The notes below the pieces were generated by a model. That model did no database searches, was not told the origin of the DNA, and was given only the letters and a program-made list of their open reading frames with translations. 64,000 nt of DNA from Candidatus Enterousia sp. (GTDB lineage: Bacteria > Pseudomonadota > Alphaproteobacteria > Rs-D84): contig JAZROL010000008.1 of NCBI GenBank assembly GCA_045648665.1, positions 4,064-68,063 of the forward strand. Direction: 5' to 3'. Below, piece after piece: positions 40,870 through 48,475 of the stretch. The position numbers were made by a program, and so were the translations under genes. How positions within the stretch are numbered: position 1 is the first letter of the stretch; every line of letters begins with the position of its first letter.

Positions 40870-43530
40870 ATGTCTAATAAATGGGTTTATACATTTGGAA
40901 ATGGTGCCGCAGAAGGCCGTGCAGATATGCGTAATCTGTTGGGCGGAAAGGGTGCTAATTTGGCAGAAATGAATTTGGTTGGTTTACCTGTGCCGGCCGG
41001 GTTTACAGTCACAACGGACGTTTGTACTTATTATTACGAAAATGGACAAACTTATCCGGCTGATTTGTTGGATCAAGTAAAAGCAGGTATCGCACATATT
41101 GAATCTATTATGGGTAAAAAATTTGCAGATACTGAAAATCCATTGTTGGTGTCTGTTCGTTCCGGGGCGCGTGTTTCTATGCCTGGAATGATGGATACTG
41201 TGTTGAATTTGGGTTTGAACGATGAAACAGTAAAAGCGTTGGCTAAATCCGCAAATAATGAAAGATTTGCTTATGATTCTTATCGTCGTTTCATTATGAT
41301 GTTCAGTGACGTTGTTTTGGGTGCAGATATTGATTTGTTTGAACATACTTTGGAACGTATGAAAGAAGACAAAGGATACAAAGTTGATACTGAATTAACA
41401 GCAGACGATTTGAAGGATTTGGTCGAAAAATTCAAAGAAATCGGTGTTAAAATTGGTAAAGTTTTCCCACAAGATCCTTGGGAACAGTTGAAATTGGGTA
41501 TCGGCGCTGTATTTGGTTCTTGGATGTCCAAAAAGGCCATTACTTATCGTAAATTGAACAATATTCCGGGTGATTGGGGAACCGCTGTGAATGTCCAGGC
41601 GATGGTGTTTGGAAATTCTGGTGATGATTCTGCAACTGGTGTGTGTTTCTCTCGCGATCCTGCAACCGGTGAAAACAAGTTTTATGGCGAATATCTGATT
41701 AATGCCCAGGGTGAAGACGTTGTGGCTGGTATTCGTACACCACAGCCAATGGCAAAAGATGATTCTGGACGTGTGTCTTTGGAAGAAGCCATGCCGGAAG
41801 TATATGCTCAATTGGTTGATGTTCGCAATAAATTGGAACAACACTATAAAGATATGCAAGATATGGAATTCACAATTGAACATAAAAAATTGTGGATGTT
41901 GCAATGCCGTAATGGTAAAAGAACTGCGGCCGCGGCTGTGCGTATGGCCGTGGAAATGGTCGAAGAAGGCTTGCTAACGAAAGAAGAAGCTATCTTGCGC
42001 GTTGGTGCAGACCAATTAAACCATTTGTTGCATCCTATGTTGGATCCAAAGGCAGAAAAGAAAGTAATCGCAACTGGTTTGCCTGCATCCCCAGGGGCTG
42101 CGGTTGGTCAGGCTGTATTTAATGCGGAAGATGCAGAAGCCTGGAAAAAAGAAGGCAAAAAAGTTATGCTTATCCGCGTTGAAACGTCCCCTGAAGATAT
42201 TGCAGGTATGAATGCGGCCCAGGGTGTTATTACTGCACGTGGTGGTATGACATCGCATGCTGCAGTGGTTGCTCGTGGTATGGGAACACCTTGTGTTTCT
42301 GGTTCTCCGGACATTAAAATTGATTATGAAACAAAAACAATGAAAACAACATCTGGTGCGGTTATCCACGAAGGTGATTGGGTTTCTATCGATGGTGCCA
42401 AGGGGCAAATTATCGAAGGCGCAATTCCAACAGTATCTGTTGAATTAACTGGTAATTTCGGCACATTGATGAAATGGGTTGATGAAATCAAATGTTTGAC
42501 AGTGAAAGCAAATGCTGAAACACCAAAAGATGCGAAACAAGCGCGTGATTTTGGTGCAGAAGGTATCGGTTTGGCACGTACTGAACATATGTTCTTTGAT
42601 CCATCTCGTATTCAAGATATGCGCGAAATGATTTTGGCAGATGACGAAGGTGGCCGTCGCGCTGCGCTGGATAAATTATTGCCATATCAAAAAGCAGACT
42701 TTATCGAATTGTTCAAAATTATGGATGGTCTGCCGGTGACAATTCGTTTAATCGATCCACCACTACACGAATTTTTGCCACATACCGAAGAAGACATGGC
42801 TGAATTGGCAAAACATATCGGTAAAGATGTTGAATTTGTAAAGGCGCGTAGTGAAGCGTTGAAGGAACAAAATCCTATGTTGGGACATCGTGGTTGCCGT
42901 TTGGCGATAACATATCCTGAAATTTGCGAAATGCAGACACGCGCAATATTGTCTGCGGCACTTGAATGCAAACAACAGGGTATACGCGTATTCCCAGAAA
43001 TCGAAGTTCCACTGGTTGGTTCAAAGAAAGAAGTGGATATTGTTAAATCTGTGATTGATGCGACTGCATCTGCTTTGTTTGCGGAAACGGGCGATTCAGT
43101 TGAATACAAAGTTGGTTCAATGATTGAATTGCCGCGTGCGGCTTTGTTGGCAAATGAAATCGCGGAAAGTTGTGAATTCTTTGAATTTGGAACAAACGAT
43201 TTGACACAAACAACATTGGGTATGTCACGTGATGATACAGGTAAAATCTTGGATGAATACCGCGCACGTGGTGTGTATGTTGCCGATCCTTTTGCATCTG
43301 TTGATCAATTGGGGGTTGGTTTGTTGATAAAAGACGCCGTTGCAAAAGCACGTGCAACCAAGGGTGAAAATATACACCTGGGTGTGTGCGGTGAACATGG
43401 CGGAGATCCTGAATCCGTTGAATTCTTCCATGCGGTTGGATTTAATTCGGTTTCATGCAGTCCGTTCCGTGTGCCAATTGCACGCCTTGCGGCGGCTCAG
43501 GCAGCGGTCAAAAACCCACGCAAAAAATAA
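40870..43530 (+). CDS. ppdK: pyruvate, phosphate dikinase
   Basis: 886 aa; N-terminal LGGKGANLAEM; central phospho-His domain GGMTSHAAVVARGMG; PEP-utilising C-terminal domain. Confidence 0.9.
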   Translation: MSNKWVYTFGNGAAEGRADMRNLLGGKGANLAEMNLVGLPVPAGFTVTTDVCTYYYENGQTYPADLLDQVKAGIAHIESIMGKKFADTENPLLVSVRSGARVSMPGMMDTVLNLGLNDETVKALAKSANNERFAYDSYRRFIMMFSDVVLGADIDLFEHTLERMKEDKGYKVDTELTADDLKDLVEKFKEIGVKIGKVFPQDPWEQLKLGIGAVFGSWMSKKAITYRKLNNIPGDWGTAVNVQAMVFGNSGDDSATGVCFSRDPATGENKFYGEYLINAQGEDVVAGIRTPQPMAKDDSGRVSLEEAMPEVYAQLVDVRNKLEQHYKDMQDMEFTIEHKKLWMLQCRNGKRTAAAAVRMAVEMVEEGLLTKEEAILRVGADQLNHLLHPMLDPKAEKKVIATGLPASPGAAVGQAVFNAEDAEAWKKEGKKVMLIRVETSPEDIAGMNAAQGVITARGGMTSHAAVVARGMGTPCVSGSPDIKIDYETKTMKTTSGAVIHEGDWVSIDGAKGQIIEGAIPTVSVELTGNFGTLMKWVDEIKCLTVKANAETPKDAKQARDFGAEGIGLARTEHMFFDPSRIQDMREMILADDEGGRRAALDKLLPYQKADFIELFKIMDGLPVTIRLIDPPLHEFLPHTEEDMAELAKHIGKDVEFVKARSEALKEQNPMLGHRGCRLAITYPEICEMQTRAILSAALECKQQGIRVFPEIEVPLVGSKKEVDIVKSVIDATASALFAETGDSVEYKVGSMIELPRAALLANEIAESCEFFEFGTNDLTQTTLGMSRDDTGKILDEYRARGVYVADPFASVDQLGVGLLIKDAVAKARATKGENIHLGVCGEHGGDPESVEFFHAVGFNSVSCSPFRVPIARLAAAQAAVKNPRKK

Positions 43531-43917: not shown

Positions 43918-44418
43918 TTCTTTTTTTCATCAAAGACACATGAATGCCCGTCAGGGCATTCTTTGTTTTTGCAAATTATTTTTTTTCTGGTACAATACTA
44001 ACCAAGCGAAAGCAGAAGAGAGAGAATACATGGGGTGATGGCTTTCGCAACGAATCTATTTTCACTACATGTGTTTGGGTCGTCCCATCATCCCATTTTT
44101 TGTCCATTTTTGCTGTTTTTTATCATTACGTGGTCGCTTTATAAAATAAAAATGCCTTTATTCAACGAGATATAACAAAAAATCAATATATTGACACGAA
44201 TCGTTTGAAAAATATCTATATTTTGATTTTTTTACGTTTCCGAATCGCTTTTTTTATGCTTTTTTCGCAAAAGTTTATACAAAAAAACATTTAGTGCCCA
44301 AAAGTGGTGCGAATCGGTGTTGTGAAAAACGTCCCAAACCCGCGCACAATATGCCTTTGAGAAATGCAAGTGAAAAAATAAGAAAAAAATTTTTTTTAAT
44401 AAGGTTATTTTATATCAA

Positions 44419-44467
44419 ATACTGTATATTGTGTTCAAAGGAACCAAAAATATACTATATATAGTAT
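44419..44467 (+). promoter_or_regulatory. two NrdR-box-like 16-bp palindromes (atactgtatattgtgt and atactatatatagtat) 33 bp apart, ~25 bp upstream of nrdD
   Basis: Both match the aCwAtATaTwGt core of NrdR operators. Tandem arrangement as in NrdR-regulated RNR operons. Confidence 0.55.
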
Positions 44468-44491: not shown

Positions 44492-46546
44492 ATGGCAAAC
44501 GATAAAAGCGAAGTTAAAATTCAAGTTGTGTCCACTTTGACTTGCGAATTGGAATCTATCAAAAAGCGTTCTGGGGAAATTGTCCCGTTTGATGCAAAGA
44601 AGATTTTTGAAGCAATTAAAAAGGCTGTGGCGGTCACACATGAATTGTCGGATGCTGATGTCGTTAAAATGACCCAGGACGTTTTGAAACGTTTGGATAA
44701 AAAATATGCCGGTCAAATTCCAGATGTCGAAAATATTCAAGATATAGTTATTCAAACTTTGATGGATTCGCATGCGTATAAAACCGCCGAAGCGTACATA
44801 GTTTATCGTCAAAAACGTGCTGAAATTCGTGATTCTTTGGTTGATGCTGTTGCAGTAATTGATGGCTATGTTTCCGAAGCGGATTGGCGCGTCAAAGAAA
44901 ATGCAAATATTGGATATTCTATTGGTGGATTGATTTTGCGTTCTTCCGAACGTATGACCGCTGAATATTGGTTGAATTTATATCCAAAAGATATTGCAGA
45001 TGCGCATAAATCTGCCGCTTTTCATATTCATGATTTGGGGTGGTTAACCGGATATTGTGCTGGTTGGTCTTTACGTGAATTGTTATACGAAGGATTTAAT
45101 GGTGTTCCGGGCTATTTACAGTGTGAACCTGCTAAACATATGGCGACCGCTATTTCGCATATGGTGAATTTCCTTGGCACTTTACAGAATGAATTTGCAG
45201 GGGCACAGGCATTTTCATCGGTTGATACATATCTGGCACCATACGTGCGTATTGATAAATTGTCCTATGCAGATGTTAAAAATGCGATGCAGACGTTAGT
45301 GTTTAATTGTTCTGTGCCTTGTCGTTGGGGAACACAAACGCCGTTTATTAACTTTACTTTCGATTGGACTTGCCCGAAAGATTTGCGCGAACAACGTCCT
45401 TTTGTAGGCAAAAAGATGGTTGATTTTACCTATGGTGATTTACAGGCCGAAATGGATATGATTAACAAAGCCTTCATAGAAGTTATGACCGAAGGTGATG
45501 CCCAGGGTCGTCCATTTACTTTCCCAATTCCAACATATAATATTACTGACGATTTCCCATGGGAACATCCAAATGTAAAGCCTTTGTTTGATTTGGCGGC
45601 AAAATACGGAATACCTAATTTCCAAAATTTCCTTAATTCTGATTTGAATCCAACGGATGTGCGTTCTATGTGTTGCAGATTGCGTTTGGATGTGCGTGAA
45701 TTGCTGAAACGTGGTGGTGGTTTGTTTGGTTCCGCTGAAAAAACAGGTTCTATTGGTGTTGTGACTATTAATTTGGCACGTTTGGGTTATACTCACAAGG
45801 GCGACCGCGAAGGTTTGTTACGTGAATTAAAACGTTTGCTGGATTTAGCACGTGATTCTTTGGAAATCAAACGTAATATTATTTCAAAGAATATGGAACG
45901 TGGTTTGTATCCATTTACTAAACGTTATTTGGGTAATTGGAATCATCACTTTTCAACCATCGGTGTTAATGGCGCGAATGAAATGGTTATGAATTTTACT
46001 AATGGCACCGATAATATCGCAACAGTGTTCGGTAAAAATTTAGTTTTGGAAGTTATGGATTTCATCAGAACTAATTTGGCCGATTATCAGGAAACAACAG
46101 GAAATCTGTATAATTTAGAGGCAACACCAGCCGAAGGATGCGCATATCGTTTTGCAAAGACAGATAAAAAGAATTTCCCAGATATTATAACTGCGGGGAC
46201 TGAAGATGCACCTTATTATACAAATTCAACACAATTGCCTGTGTATTTCACGGATGACCCATTTGTCGCACTGGAACACCAGGAAGAATTACAACGTAAA
46301 TATACCGGTGGAACAATGTTGCACCTGTATATGGGCGAACCTGTATCGTCGGGTGAGGCCGCGGAAAAGATTGTCCGGACTATATTTGAAAATTACAAAG
46401 TGCCATATATGACATTGACACCTACATTTTCAATTTGTCCAAAACATGGATATTTGCCGGGAAGACATGATTTTTGTCCTAAATGTGATGCAGAAATCGT
46501 GGCTAACAGCAATGATTGTCAATGCAAATGTGACGACCATAAATAA
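44492..46546 (+). CDS. nrdD: anaerobic ribonucleoside-triphosphate reductase (class III) catalytic subunit, lacking the C-terminal glycyl-radical segment
   Basis: ATP-cone N-terminus; NrdD body; C-terminal Zn ribbon CPKHG...CPKCD. No RxxGY motif before the stop. Confidence 0.85.
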   Translation: MANDKSEVKIQVVSTLTCELESIKKRSGEIVPFDAKKIFEAIKKAVAVTHELSDADVVKMTQDVLKRLDKKYAGQIPDVENIQDIVIQTLMDSHAYKTAEAYIVYRQKRAEIRDSLVDAVAVIDGYVSEADWRVKENANIGYSIGGLILRSSERMTAEYWLNLYPKDIADAHKSAAFHIHDLGWLTGYCAGWSLRELLYEGFNGVPGYLQCEPAKHMATAISHMVNFLGTLQNEFAGAQAFSSVDTYLAPYVRIDKLSYADVKNAMQTLVFNCSVPCRWGTQTPFINFTFDWTCPKDLREQRPFVGKKMVDFTYGDLQAEMDMINKAFIEVMTEGDAQGRPFTFPIPTYNITDDFPWEHPNVKPLFDLAAKYGIPNFQNFLNSDLNPTDVRSMCCRLRLDVRELLKRGGGLFGSAEKTGSIGVVTINLARLGYTHKGDREGLLRELKRLLDLARDSLEIKRNIISKNMERGLYPFTKRYLGNWNHHFSTIGVNGANEMVMNFTNGTDNIATVFGKNLVLEVMDFIRTNLADYQETTGNLYNLEATPAEGCAYRFAKTDKKNFPDIITAGTEDAPYYTNSTQLPVYFTDDPFVALEHQEELQRKYTGGTMLHLYMGEPVSSGEAAEKIVRTIFENYKVPYMTLTPTFSICPKHGYLPGRHDFCPKCDAEIVANSNDCQCKCDDHK

Positions 46547-46587
46547 GTTAACAAATAAACAAAAATTAAAACGAAAGGAGGAAAACC

Positions 46588-46767
46588 ATGAACCCACAAA
46601 CAAGAACACGCTGCGAAACATTTTCACGCTCTATGGGATATATTCGCCCAGTAAGAAATTTCAATATCGGGAAATATGCTGAATTTTGCGAAAGAAAAAC
46701 TTTCACAGAATCAAACGCATTGTCAACTGGTTCTCGTCACGCTGAATTATTGAAAAAAGCAGCCTAA
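46588..46767 (+). CDS. stand-alone NrdD glycyl-radical domain (59 aa)
   Basis: Own RBS AAAGGAGG 7 nt upstream. TRCETFSRSMGYIRPVRNFNIGKYAEFCERKTF matches the NrdD C-terminal consensus R(V)CGYL.P...N.GK.EE..R, with the radical Gly in MGY. Missed by the ORF track (<60 aa). Confidence 0.65.
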   Translation: MNPQTRTRCETFSRSMGYIRPVRNFNIGKYAEFCERKTFTESNALSTGSRHAELLKKAA

Positions 46768-46780
46768 GGGTCGGTTTTTC

Positions 46781-47485
46781 ATGAAAGAAATTCAAATCGG
46801 CGGCTTGGTTTCCTTTACGACAATTGATTATCCTGGGAAATTGGCCGCTGTTTTATTTTTAAAGGGATGCCCGCTGAATTGCGAATATTGTTCTAATTCG
46901 CATCTTATTGCAGTGGAGCAGGGTGAATATGACCCAGAAAAAGTTTTCGATTGGATACGTGCGCGCGTCGGTAAATTAGAAGGTATCGTCTTTTCTGGTG
47001 GTGAAGCGTTAATGCAGGCGGACACAACAATCGATTATATGAAACGCGTCAAAGAACTGGGGTTCGCAATTGGGTTGCATACCAATGGTTTTTATCCTGA
47101 TTTGTTAAAGAAAGTATCAAGTATTGTTGATTGGATTGGTTTGGATTTCAAAGCAACCAAAGAACATTACAAAGATTTAACCAAGATAGATATAGCGTAT
47201 AATCGTATGATTGAATCTTTGCAATATTGGGTGTCAACAGGGCGCGGATTGGAAGTGCGTACTACATGTGATCCGCGTTATGTTTCAAAAGAAGATTTAT
47301 TGGAAATCGCAAAAATTGCGTCTGGTTTTGGTGTTAAACATTTCGCTGTGCAAAAATATACACCATATCATGAATGTGAATGTCATCAAACAACACCCGC
47401 ACAACGTGAACAATTTTTCAATGACGATGAATTAAAGAAAAAGATAGAAAGTTTATTTGAAAGTGTGATTTGGAGAAACGCATAG
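46781..47485 (+). CDS. nrdG: anaerobic ribonucleotide reductase activating protein (radical SAM)
   Basis: CPLNCEYC radical-SAM cluster; GGEAL motif; adjacent to nrdD. Confidence 0.85.
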   Translation: MKEIQIGGLVSFTTIDYPGKLAAVLFLKGCPLNCEYCSNSHLIAVEQGEYDPEKVFDWIRARVGKLEGIVFSGGEALMQADTTIDYMKRVKELGFAIGLHTNGFYPDLLKKVSSIVDWIGLDFKATKEHYKDLTKIDIAYNRMIESLQYWVSTGRGLEVRTTCDPRYVSKEDLLEIAKIASGFGVKHFAVQKYTPYHECECHQTTPAQREQFFNDDELKKKIESLFESVIWRNA

Positions 47486-47487
47486 TT

Positions 47488-47886
47488 TTATAGGTATTTT
47501 TTCCATTTTTTATCTCTGTAAACGTCGATAGCGGTTTGAAACCAAAAATCGCGAATATTTCTGGCAGATACTGCCCTCATAAAAGAAATATAGATTTTTG
47601 GATTTAGGCATACATTATCACAAAGATACACATTTTGTATGCCCCAGTTTTCCTTTTCGATTTTGGATAACAATTTACCTATAAATTTATCGCTGTAACA
47701 ATATTTATCCATAAAAAAAGCGGCTTTTTGCATAAAAATATAAACTCTGCCGGGTTTATCAATCATGCCAGACGAAGAAACAAGAATTAATAAAATGTCA
47801 GACAATTTAAAAGTGTTAAAAGTCTGTTCGTTGATTTTTTGAAATTGAACATCCCGAATACAAATGGTCTTGGTTTGATTTACCAT
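47488..47886 (-). CDS. hypothetical protein
   Basis: 132-aa ORF. Preceded on its 5' side by structured repeat copy A and a terminator-like hairpin. Confidence 0.4.
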   Translation of the reverse strand: MVNQTKTICIRDVQFQKINEQTFNTFKLSDILLILVSSSGMIDKPGRVYIFMQKAAFFMDKYCYSDKFIGKLLSKIEKENWGIQNVYLCDNVCLNPKIYISFMRAVSARNIRDFWFQTAIDVYRDKKWKKYL

Positions 47887-48390: not shown

Positions 48391-48475
48391 TGGTGGCTCT
48401 GGTCGGAATCGAACCGACACTCCTTTCAGAACTTGATTTTGAGTCAAGCGCGTCTACCAGTTCCGCCACAGAGCC
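48391..48475 (-). tRNA. tRNA-Leu (anticodon CAA)
   Basis: 85 nt on the minus strand: GGCTCTG acceptor, anticodon stem CTTGA/TCAAG with loop CTCAAAA, long variable arm, T-arm TCGG-TTCGATT-CCGA, CCA encoded. Confidence 0.8.

Follow-up and report, generated by a model that had tools for sequence, protein, structure and literature searches.

The subject of this report is a locus for a class III (anaerobic) ribonucleotide reductase (RNR) in Candidatus Enterousia sp., an alphaproteobacterium of the Rs-D84 lineage. It lies within a stretch of 64,000 nucleotides of contig JAZROL010000008.1 (assembly GCA_045648665.1), which is called the window here and in which all coordinates are counted. In this locus nrdD, the gene of the catalytic chain, ends ahead of the glycyl-radical loop, the loop is encoded by a small open reading frame (ORF) of its own, and the gene of the activating enzyme NrdG follows. 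The main features are listed below.

44492..46546, plus strand: nrdD, large (catalytic) subunit, 684 aa, ending ...CPKHGYLPGRHDFCPKCDAEIVANSNDCQCKCDDHK; stop codon TAA at 46544-46546
aa 22-110 of the large subunit, plus strand: ATP-cone, by Pfam profile match
45665-45679 (aa 392-396), plus strand: SMCCR finger loop in the alpha/beta barrel, read from the translation
46436-46486 (aa 649-665), plus strand: putative zinc ribbon CPKH...CPKC (C649-P-K-H652 ... C662-P-K-C665)
46496-46543 (aa 669-684), plus strand: non-conserved, cysteine-rich 16-aa tail of the large subunit (NDCQCKCDDHK)
46547..46587, plus strand: A-rich spacer of 41 nt between nrdD and the small ORF
46574-46581, plus strand: Shine-Dalgarno (SD) site AAAGGAGG, 6 nt before the ATG at 46588
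46588..46767, plus strand: small subunit, 59 aa, MNPQTRTRCETFSRSMGYIRPVRNFNIGKYAEFCERKTFTESNALSTGSRHAELLKKAA; ATG at 46588, frame +2 relative to nrdD
46636-46638, plus strand: codon of the radical glycine in the loop motif RSMG17Y, which is followed by IRPVxNFNIGKxxEFxERKTF
46781..47485, plus strand: nrdG, radical-SAM activating enzyme, 234 aa (TIGR02495 NrdG2, 177 bits; cut-off 131)

Anatomy of the split nrdD gene

Profile searches divide one NrdD between the two ORFs. The large ORF matches the Pfam family NRDD (PF13597), the alpha/beta-barrel catalytic domain, at positions 1-529 of 562 (E 2e-169), in addition to the ATP-cone, and NCBIfam NF006126 at positions 3-658 of 684 (1030 bits, cut-off 548); no RxxGY glycyl-radical loop is present on this polypeptide, where the NRDD coverage stops at 529/562. 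The small ORF matches NRDD at positions 531-562, the last 32 of the profile (E 7e-5), TIGR02487 at positions 548-580 of 581 (E 3e-5) and NF006126 at positions 645-682 of 684. Since the coverage of NRDD and NF006126 by the two ORFs is complementary, the small ORF is the missing end of NrdD. These matches bear out the preliminary description of the locus, according to which nrdD stops after its zinc ribbon without the radical-bearing segment, and a 59-aa ORF, 41 nt downstream in another frame and with its own ribosome-binding site, fits the C-terminal glycyl-radical consensus of NrdD. The only matches of the small ORF at E up to 1 are NRDD and, weakly, Lipoprotein_10; PF01228, the Gly_radical domain of pyruvate formate-lyase (PFL) with its RVSGY motif, is not matched at that threshold. 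A profile of the small ORFs had no match among PDB sequences, and the window's own small protein had none in a contig look-up by exact sequence.

Judged by its residues, the large subunit looks active. Its SMCCR loop provides the finger-loop catalytic cysteine in the form of the MGCR or MCCR motif, as defined in the preprint of Burnim et al. 2022 (doi 10.1101/2022.04.23.489257), and in alignments of lineages that are 57-100% identical M393, C394, C395 and R396 are invariant, as are the zinc ligands. The putative zinc ribbon, C-terminal in the large subunit and ahead of the radical loop, lines up with the CxxC/CxxC site of P. copri NrdD and with CEDGH...CPVC of T. maritima NrdD, and is kept in all loci examined. 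The nrdG gene starts 13 nt 3' of the small ORF, so that a dedicated activase is close at hand. By every sequence feature save a loop on the catalytic chain, the enzyme is a class III RNR.

The small ORF encodes a free-standing protein that holds the radical-loop region only and has its own SD-like site and ATG. Residues R14, M16, G17, G28, K29, E32, E35 and R36 are invariant among 74 homologs, and the ORF is under strong purifying selection, with a median pairwise dN/dS of 0.115 at a dS of about 1.3. Its close homologs form 110 clusters, all of them short (44-92 aa) and none full length, and the named members are uncultured Alphaproteobacteria. Because the homologs in these 110 clusters are exclusively short, the small ORF is not a chance reading frame.

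Several further properties of the small proteins were observed. Cys9 (46612-46614), located 8 residues before the radical glycine, is at least 90% conserved in both the narrow and the wide family (CExF/W), and the aligned residue of T. maritima NrdD is Val613. The bacterial small subunits have an extra conserved tail, ...TExNxLxxGxRHxELLKKAA (aa 41-59 in the window, nt 46708-46764). Several distant small proteins likewise finish in AA (KIAA, RMAA, NIAA), and the C-terminal AA is reminiscent of an ssrA-like degron.

Conservation of the split and operon context

In GTDB, scanned at one genome per species, 263 loci encode a relative of the small ORF. The best 80 of these were analysed; together with the window and two further loci (L001 and L008) they make up a set of 83. 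Most of the split loci come from Candidatus Enterousia, the others from other uncultured Alphaproteobacteria, of rumen and gut. A truncated nrdD is followed by the small ORF in all of the best 80 of the 263 loci, and nrdG comes directly after it in 79/80, that is, in every locus whose contig reaches that far. The same split, which the preliminary description proposed to look for in related genomes, is thus present in 83/83 loci: each has the radical loop on a separate ORF with the motif R[SAC]MG[YF] intact, and each has an SD-like GGAG upstream of the small-ORF ATG. The nrdD stop codon is TAA in 81/83 loci, and the spacer is A-rich, 22-59 nt long and not conserved in sequence. Two loci with an Enterousia-type operon (L035 and L105) are filed as Bacteroidales and Muribaculaceae metagenome-assembled genomes (MAGs), probably owing to binning contamination. 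Every protein retrieved with the large subunit as query was at least 91% identical to it and likewise truncated; fused relatives lie outside this sample.

The small ORF takes all three frames relative to nrdD (0/1/2 in 27/29/27 loci). Where the ORFs are in frame they are parted by TAA (27 loci), and in 19 more, including the window, the spacer holds a stop codon in the small ORF's reading frame; a single frameshift could not fuse the ORFs in 46/83 loci, window included. In the remaining 37/83 no stop codon interrupts the small ORF's frame between its ATG and the 3' end of nrdD.

The large subunit is conserved through ...FCPKCDAE in the 83 loci, and then comes a tail of 6-20 residues that differs from locus to locus, both in its length and in its sequence. 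The window's tail motif CQCKC is restricted to its own subclade, other Enterousia tails being unrelated to it and 6-20 aa long. To place the breakpoint, the fused T. maritima NrdD (PDB 4COI) was aligned by means of a junction-spanning pseudo-sequence, an alignment that is statistically weak and collinear with the profile matches. In this weak alignment residues 602-666 of the large subunit correspond to T. maritima 548-609, ending CPVCG609, and residues 8-39 of the small subunit to 612-643, KVDEYMRIVG621YLVPVSAFNK... The breakpoint would accordingly fall in the 2-residue link between zinc ribbon and radical loop, from CPVCG609 to K612, 10 residues before Gly621, and variable tail, stop codon, spacer and leader together stand in for the two linking residues of the fused enzyme. 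The 'glycyl radical domain' of the P. copri structure comprises zinc site, Gly loop and tail (PMC11226230). As far as the alignments tell, the detached part is the Gly loop with the C-terminal tail only, and the zinc-ribbon half of that domain remains on the large subunit.

A split intein or trans-splicing pair was considered for this junction and rejected. Neither ORF has an intein or HINT match at E up to 1, and the junction segments, 6-20 aa on the large side and 3-20 aa on the small side, are short and unconserved. There is no mobile element at the junction.

The split is also found beyond this clade. A profile of the small ORFs was searched against 1.84 billion representatives (counts at 50% identity) and matched 4090 of them at E up to 1e-3 and 631 at E up to 1e-10. 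The best 150 of the 4090 are all 47-152 aa long, and the 54 of these that were read consist of Met and a short unique leader, then [ED]R[TQ]xCE[VI][WF][TS]R[VSA]MGY[HYFI]RP[VI]xxFNxGK[KR]xE[FY]xERKxF. A word-indexed search with the wider profile gave at least 7999 clusters at 90% identity. Automatic database names of the small proteins are 'hypothetical protein' or 'anaerobic ribonucleoside-triphosphate reductase'.

For example, in Sutterellaceae (loci L114-L117, 2971-5972) an NrdD of 675 aa ending ...CPLCDAELIQQKKAQAACDCKEEK is followed after a 2-nt gap by a small ORF of 57 aa (P0438) and then by NrdG. The assignment to this family rests on named S18 and L9 neighbours (Candidatus Aphodousia, Sutterella, Duodenibacillus, Burkholderiaceae). 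In the contig collection, the index lists P0438 for 403 blocks, with contigs of up to about 2 Mb. The large-subunit tail reads ...ACDCKEEK, and the SD-like site sits within the nrdD end (gaggaaaagTAAaaATG), which suggests translational coupling. In one further bacterial lineage (P0248) NrdD has 687 aa and the small ORF 63 aa, and behind NrdG come a thioredoxin-reductase-like gene and SufB; such a flavoprotein gene and SufB immediately after nrdG, as noted at locus L112 (4960-5886), fit a thioredoxin-dependent NrdD subtype. On a contig of 588 bp (P0251) the small ORF is flanked by a 34-aa ORF fragment upstream and a 78-aa fragment downstream. The split spans Alpha- and Betaproteobacteria.

The surroundings of the operon in the window are as follows.

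40870-43530: pyruvate phosphate dikinase-like gene, 886 aa
43684-43917: hydrophobic 77-aa ORF, followed by a hairpin terminator at 43942-43961
44419-44434, plus strand: NrdR-box-like 16-mer ATACTGTATATTGTGT, 73 nt upstream of the nrdD ATG
44452-44467, plus strand: NrdR-box-like 16-mer ATACTATATATAGTAT, 40 nt upstream of the nrdD ATG, near-palindromic like its partner
44996-45015 (in nrdD) and 47308-47320 (in nrdG): weak terminator-like sites, consensus scan
47531..47552, plus strand: terminator-like hairpin after nrdG (consensus scan, weak evidence)
48394-48475, minus strand: tRNA (Rfam)

The two 16-mers of the window are 33 bp apart and are probable repressor sites of the operon, as predicted from their sequence. 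Upstream of nrdD in 58/78 related loci there is a pair of boxes with at most 4 mismatches from ACACTATATATAGTGT, which we take to be the NrdR-box consensus of Rodionov and Gelfand and which is not a curated model; the spacing is 33 bp in 52 of them. A consensus scan, itself weak evidence, gave no terminator-like site at the junctions between nrdD and the small ORF and between the small ORF and nrdG. In Rfam searches over the operon region no regulatory RNA was matched, the tRNA being the only hit.

Free-standing copies in phages and prophages

Copies of the small gene also occur in phage and prophage loci (L004-L007, L009-L029, L110 and L118-L197). The small genes P0105 and P0110 adjoin holin, lysozyme, HNH and Mtd_N genes, and P0271 was found where the integrase of a prophage is located, together with XkdX, cell-wall hydrolase and reverse transcriptase, the host being a gut alphaproteobacterium. 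P0508 is DAE04103.1 of 'Siphoviridae sp. ctmpG14'. Enterousia-type copies of 45-89 aa, with the pattern CExFSRSMGYIRP[VI]xNFNIGKRxE[FY]EERKTF, were found on 18 IMG/VR contigs. No nrdD or nrdG is near the Enterousia-type copies in these 18 IMG/VR and 4 Logan loci (flanks of up to 10 kb), and NrdD and NrdG HMMs had 0 matches in 330 kb from 26 phage loci.

The wider family matches 326 IMG/VR contigs, and 72 of the best 80 carry the small ORF alone. These orphans are not ends of full-length genes, because their stop-to-stop lengths are only 53-145 codons. On the other 8 of these 80 contigs a truncated NrdD lies close by; several bear insertions, one of them an intein. Such NrdD insertions, about 130-320 aa long, were noted on large IMG/VR contigs (L180/L181 8760-11261, L119 3359-5812, L122 2949-5954, and L123/L124). 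The insertion of L180 is an intein, with Intein_splicing and PT-HINT matches, and on this contig the small-subunit gene is located 2.6 kb upstream of nrdD and not after it.

Phage copies are without the bacterial tail ...TGxRHxELLKKAA and have other, basic tails (KKLLKKGA, MPCGKKKGGKK). The nearest PHROGs family of the small proteins is phrog_4132, annotated 'unknown function', and a search of GenBank phages with a member of the wider family gave 2 weak matches only.

Functional reading and known systems

The locus most probably encodes an obligate two-polypeptide class III RNR, in which the radical loop is supplied in trans; we put the probability of this at roughly 0.85. The separate glycyl-radical subunit proposed in the preliminary description is supported by the stop codon, SD-like site and ATG found in 83/83 loci, by the spread over all three frames and by purifying selection. 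How the pieces would work together we infer as follows. nrdD, the small ORF and nrdG would be co-transcribed, probably under the control of NrdR, and the small protein would be translated from its own ribosome-binding site. The large subunit would provide allostery through the ATP-cone and catalysis through the thiyl-radical cysteines, and the small subunit would be the substrate of NrdG, which would take the C-alpha hydrogen from Gly17. The Gly17 loop would then enter the barrel of the large subunit beside Cys394/Cys395, like the covalently linked loop of the fused enzymes. High mobility has been described for the glycyl radical domain of fused P. copri NrdD, and in fused NrdDs this domain must leave the barrel for activation (PMC11226230); because of this mobility a two-piece function is structurally plausible.

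In glycyl radical enzymes, the radical glycine is the point at which oxygen cuts the chain (PMC13450708), and a detachable loop would thus confine the loss to a 59-residue peptide, whose exchange would re-arm the enzyme. The small protein is plausibly a part that can be replaced after oxygen damage, and one exploited by phages. The free-standing phage genes suggest that the small module functions in trans, together with the large subunit and the NrdG of the host; the phage and prophage proteins would presumably be activated by host NrdG, dock on the host large subunit and sustain the dNTP supply while the infection lasts. The analogy to GrcA/YfiD, the spare part of PFL, which the preliminary description had drawn, is apt with two qualifications: as a possible working mode it draws support from the orphan phage and prophage copies, but in this bacterium the protein would be an obligate subunit and not a spare, and it is a homolog of the NrdD C-terminus and not of GrcA/PFL. 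More tentative still, at somewhat under an even chance, is the existence of a large and hitherto unrecognised class of exchangeable NrdD-type radical cartridges, in which split-NrdD bacteria (Rs-D84, Sutterellaceae and others) swap the loop in place of the entire enzyme and phage genes of 150-250 bp plug into the host enzyme.

Several points weigh against the two-polypeptide reading. Expression, assembly and activity are predicted from the genes, and most of the genomes involved are metagenome-assembled. An AlphaFold2 model of the concatenated pieces has a mean pLDDT of 59.7, with residues 673-743 below 50, from a shallow alignment of 18 rows, a quality too low to bear on docking. The window contains no second complete nrdD and no other RNR class, within a scope of 64 kb of the genome. 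The advantage of a replaceable part is presumed, and a neutral split that the cells simply tolerate is conceivable; the phage copies, too, could be inhibitors or decoys and not helpers.

Adjacent ORFs in different frames that jointly give a full NrdD profile would by default be taken in a MAG for a sequencing or assembly frameshift, or for a recent pseudogene, of a gene that is truly fused, and the preliminary description had named this alternative. The comparative data exclude it, and the separate-subunit reading therefore stands. The split recurs in 83/83 independent loci of different species and assemblies, every one with a stop codon, a variable A-rich spacer (22-59 nt), an SD-like site and ATG, in all three frames; large tail and small leader stand in place of just 2 residues of a fused chain; and the dN/dS of 0.115 and the 110 clusters of short homologs, none full length, do not fit a broken gene. 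That programmed recoding, by frameshift, hop or read-through, yields a single fused NrdD is very improbable. The frame of the small ORF is open into the nrdD 3' end in 37/83 loci, gene callers at times extend the ORF to 75-92 aa, and the gap in Sutterellaceae is just 2 nt, all of which would suit recoding. However, neither the relative frame (27/29/27) nor any recoding site is conserved, no single shift can link the ORFs in 46/83 loci, the strong SD-like site and ATG are universal, the spacer and both flanking peptide segments are unconserved, and the phage copies are free-standing without an upstream nrdD.

The small protein might instead be a regulator or decoy, such as a competitor for NrdG, a radical buffer or a phage inhibitor of host dNTP synthesis, the truncated NrdD then being inactive or served by another radical source. 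It is conceivable that the phage orphans tie up host NrdG or obstruct the large subunit, and their tails are unlike the bacterial one. This is improbable, given a large subunit with invariant catalytic and zinc residues yet without its own glycine loop, an operon that always couples the small ORF to nrdG, and the retention of every residue of the NrdD radical-loop consensus in 83/83 bacterial copies and in the phage copies, which a decoy would not need. An inactive enzyme of 684 aa is also unlikely in a reduced genome; Candidatus Enterousia genomes are 0.75-1.0 Mb, fermentative and without respiration (PMC12306168), and because of this reduction a dead three-gene operon would hardly persist. 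A split that is functional but selectively neutral, with the fission spread by descent and horizontal transfer and the phage copies as hitch-hiking fragments, is unlikely, although it has precedent in functional split RNRs without a known repair role, e.g., NrdJa/NrdJb and Aeh1 NrdA-a/b (PMC4520616, PMC3045599, PMC3653736). The numerous and diverse phage orphans with intact radical loop argue that the free-standing module is itself under selection, the breakpoint separates off precisely the piece destroyed by oxygen, and the split persists across Alpha- and Betaproteobacteria.

The two-piece NrdD is real, conserved and apparently undescribed, and the main uncertainty is functional and not genomic. 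Class III RNR serves textbooks as the example of an enzyme with the glycyl radical on its own C-terminus, and a natural two-piece form would show that the loop can be delivered in trans. It would offer a system for studying the access of NrdG to the glycine, entry and exit of the loop, and repair by subunit exchange, questions so far approachable for glycyl radical enzymes only with PFL and GrcA. In Candidatus Enterousia (genomes about 0.9 Mb) and Sutterellaceae, lineages abundant in gut and rumen, the split is the rule, and Sutterellaceae include cultured genera (Sutterella, Duodenibacillus) as a possible experimental route. Should the replaceable-part proposal prove true, glycyl radical enzymes would have a second spare-part system, the first to serve ribonucleotide reduction, and the phage cartridge genes would be minimal auxiliary metabolic genes of gut and rumen phages; orphan cartridges in hundreds of viral contigs would be unusually small for such a gene. 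For annotation, truncated nrdD genes of this kind risk being called pseudogenes.

In the open-access literature (subscription-only papers not covered) no description of a split or truncated nrdD or of an NrdD spare part was found. Split domains were described as distinct to class II by Burnim et al. 2022, the broad RNR surveys consulted mention split chains for class II only, and according to a review of June 2026 spare-part proteins are known only for formate lyases.

Compared with the fused NrdD/NrdG systems of T4, E. coli, T. maritima (4COI/4U3E) and P. copri (8P23), the locus has the same ATP-cone, barrel, MCCR loop, zinc ribbon and adjacent NrdG, and the same radical-loop consensus RxxGYxxPVxxFNxGKxxExxxR. 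Unlike in these enzymes, the chain is broken 10 residues before the radical glycine, and loop and tail form an independently translated protein of 59 aa. GrcA/YfiD of E. coli and Y06I of phage T4 are likewise small free-standing glycyl-radical-loop proteins able to act in trans (PMC8683613; PMC13450708), and phage-encoded versions and the logic of replacing the oxygen-cleaved part are shared with them. In contrast to GrcA, which has about 127 aa, carries the PFL Gly_radical domain and is a true spare, the NrdD-type small proteins have 45-90 aa, belong to the family of the NrdD C-terminus and, in the bacteria, where the adjacent NrdD has no loop of its own, are the sole loop for that enzyme. 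A catalytic gene in two adjacent ORFs, the products of which have to come together, is found also in class II NrdJa/NrdJb of Pseudomonas aeruginosa, in class Ia NrdA-a/NrdA-b of Aeromonas phage Aeh1 and in split phage nrdD. These known split RNRs cut the barrel, separate a C-terminal redox or zinc domain, or stem from insertion of a homing endonuclease, intron or intein, whereas in the locus described here the junction is free of mobile elements and the detached piece is the radical cofactor.

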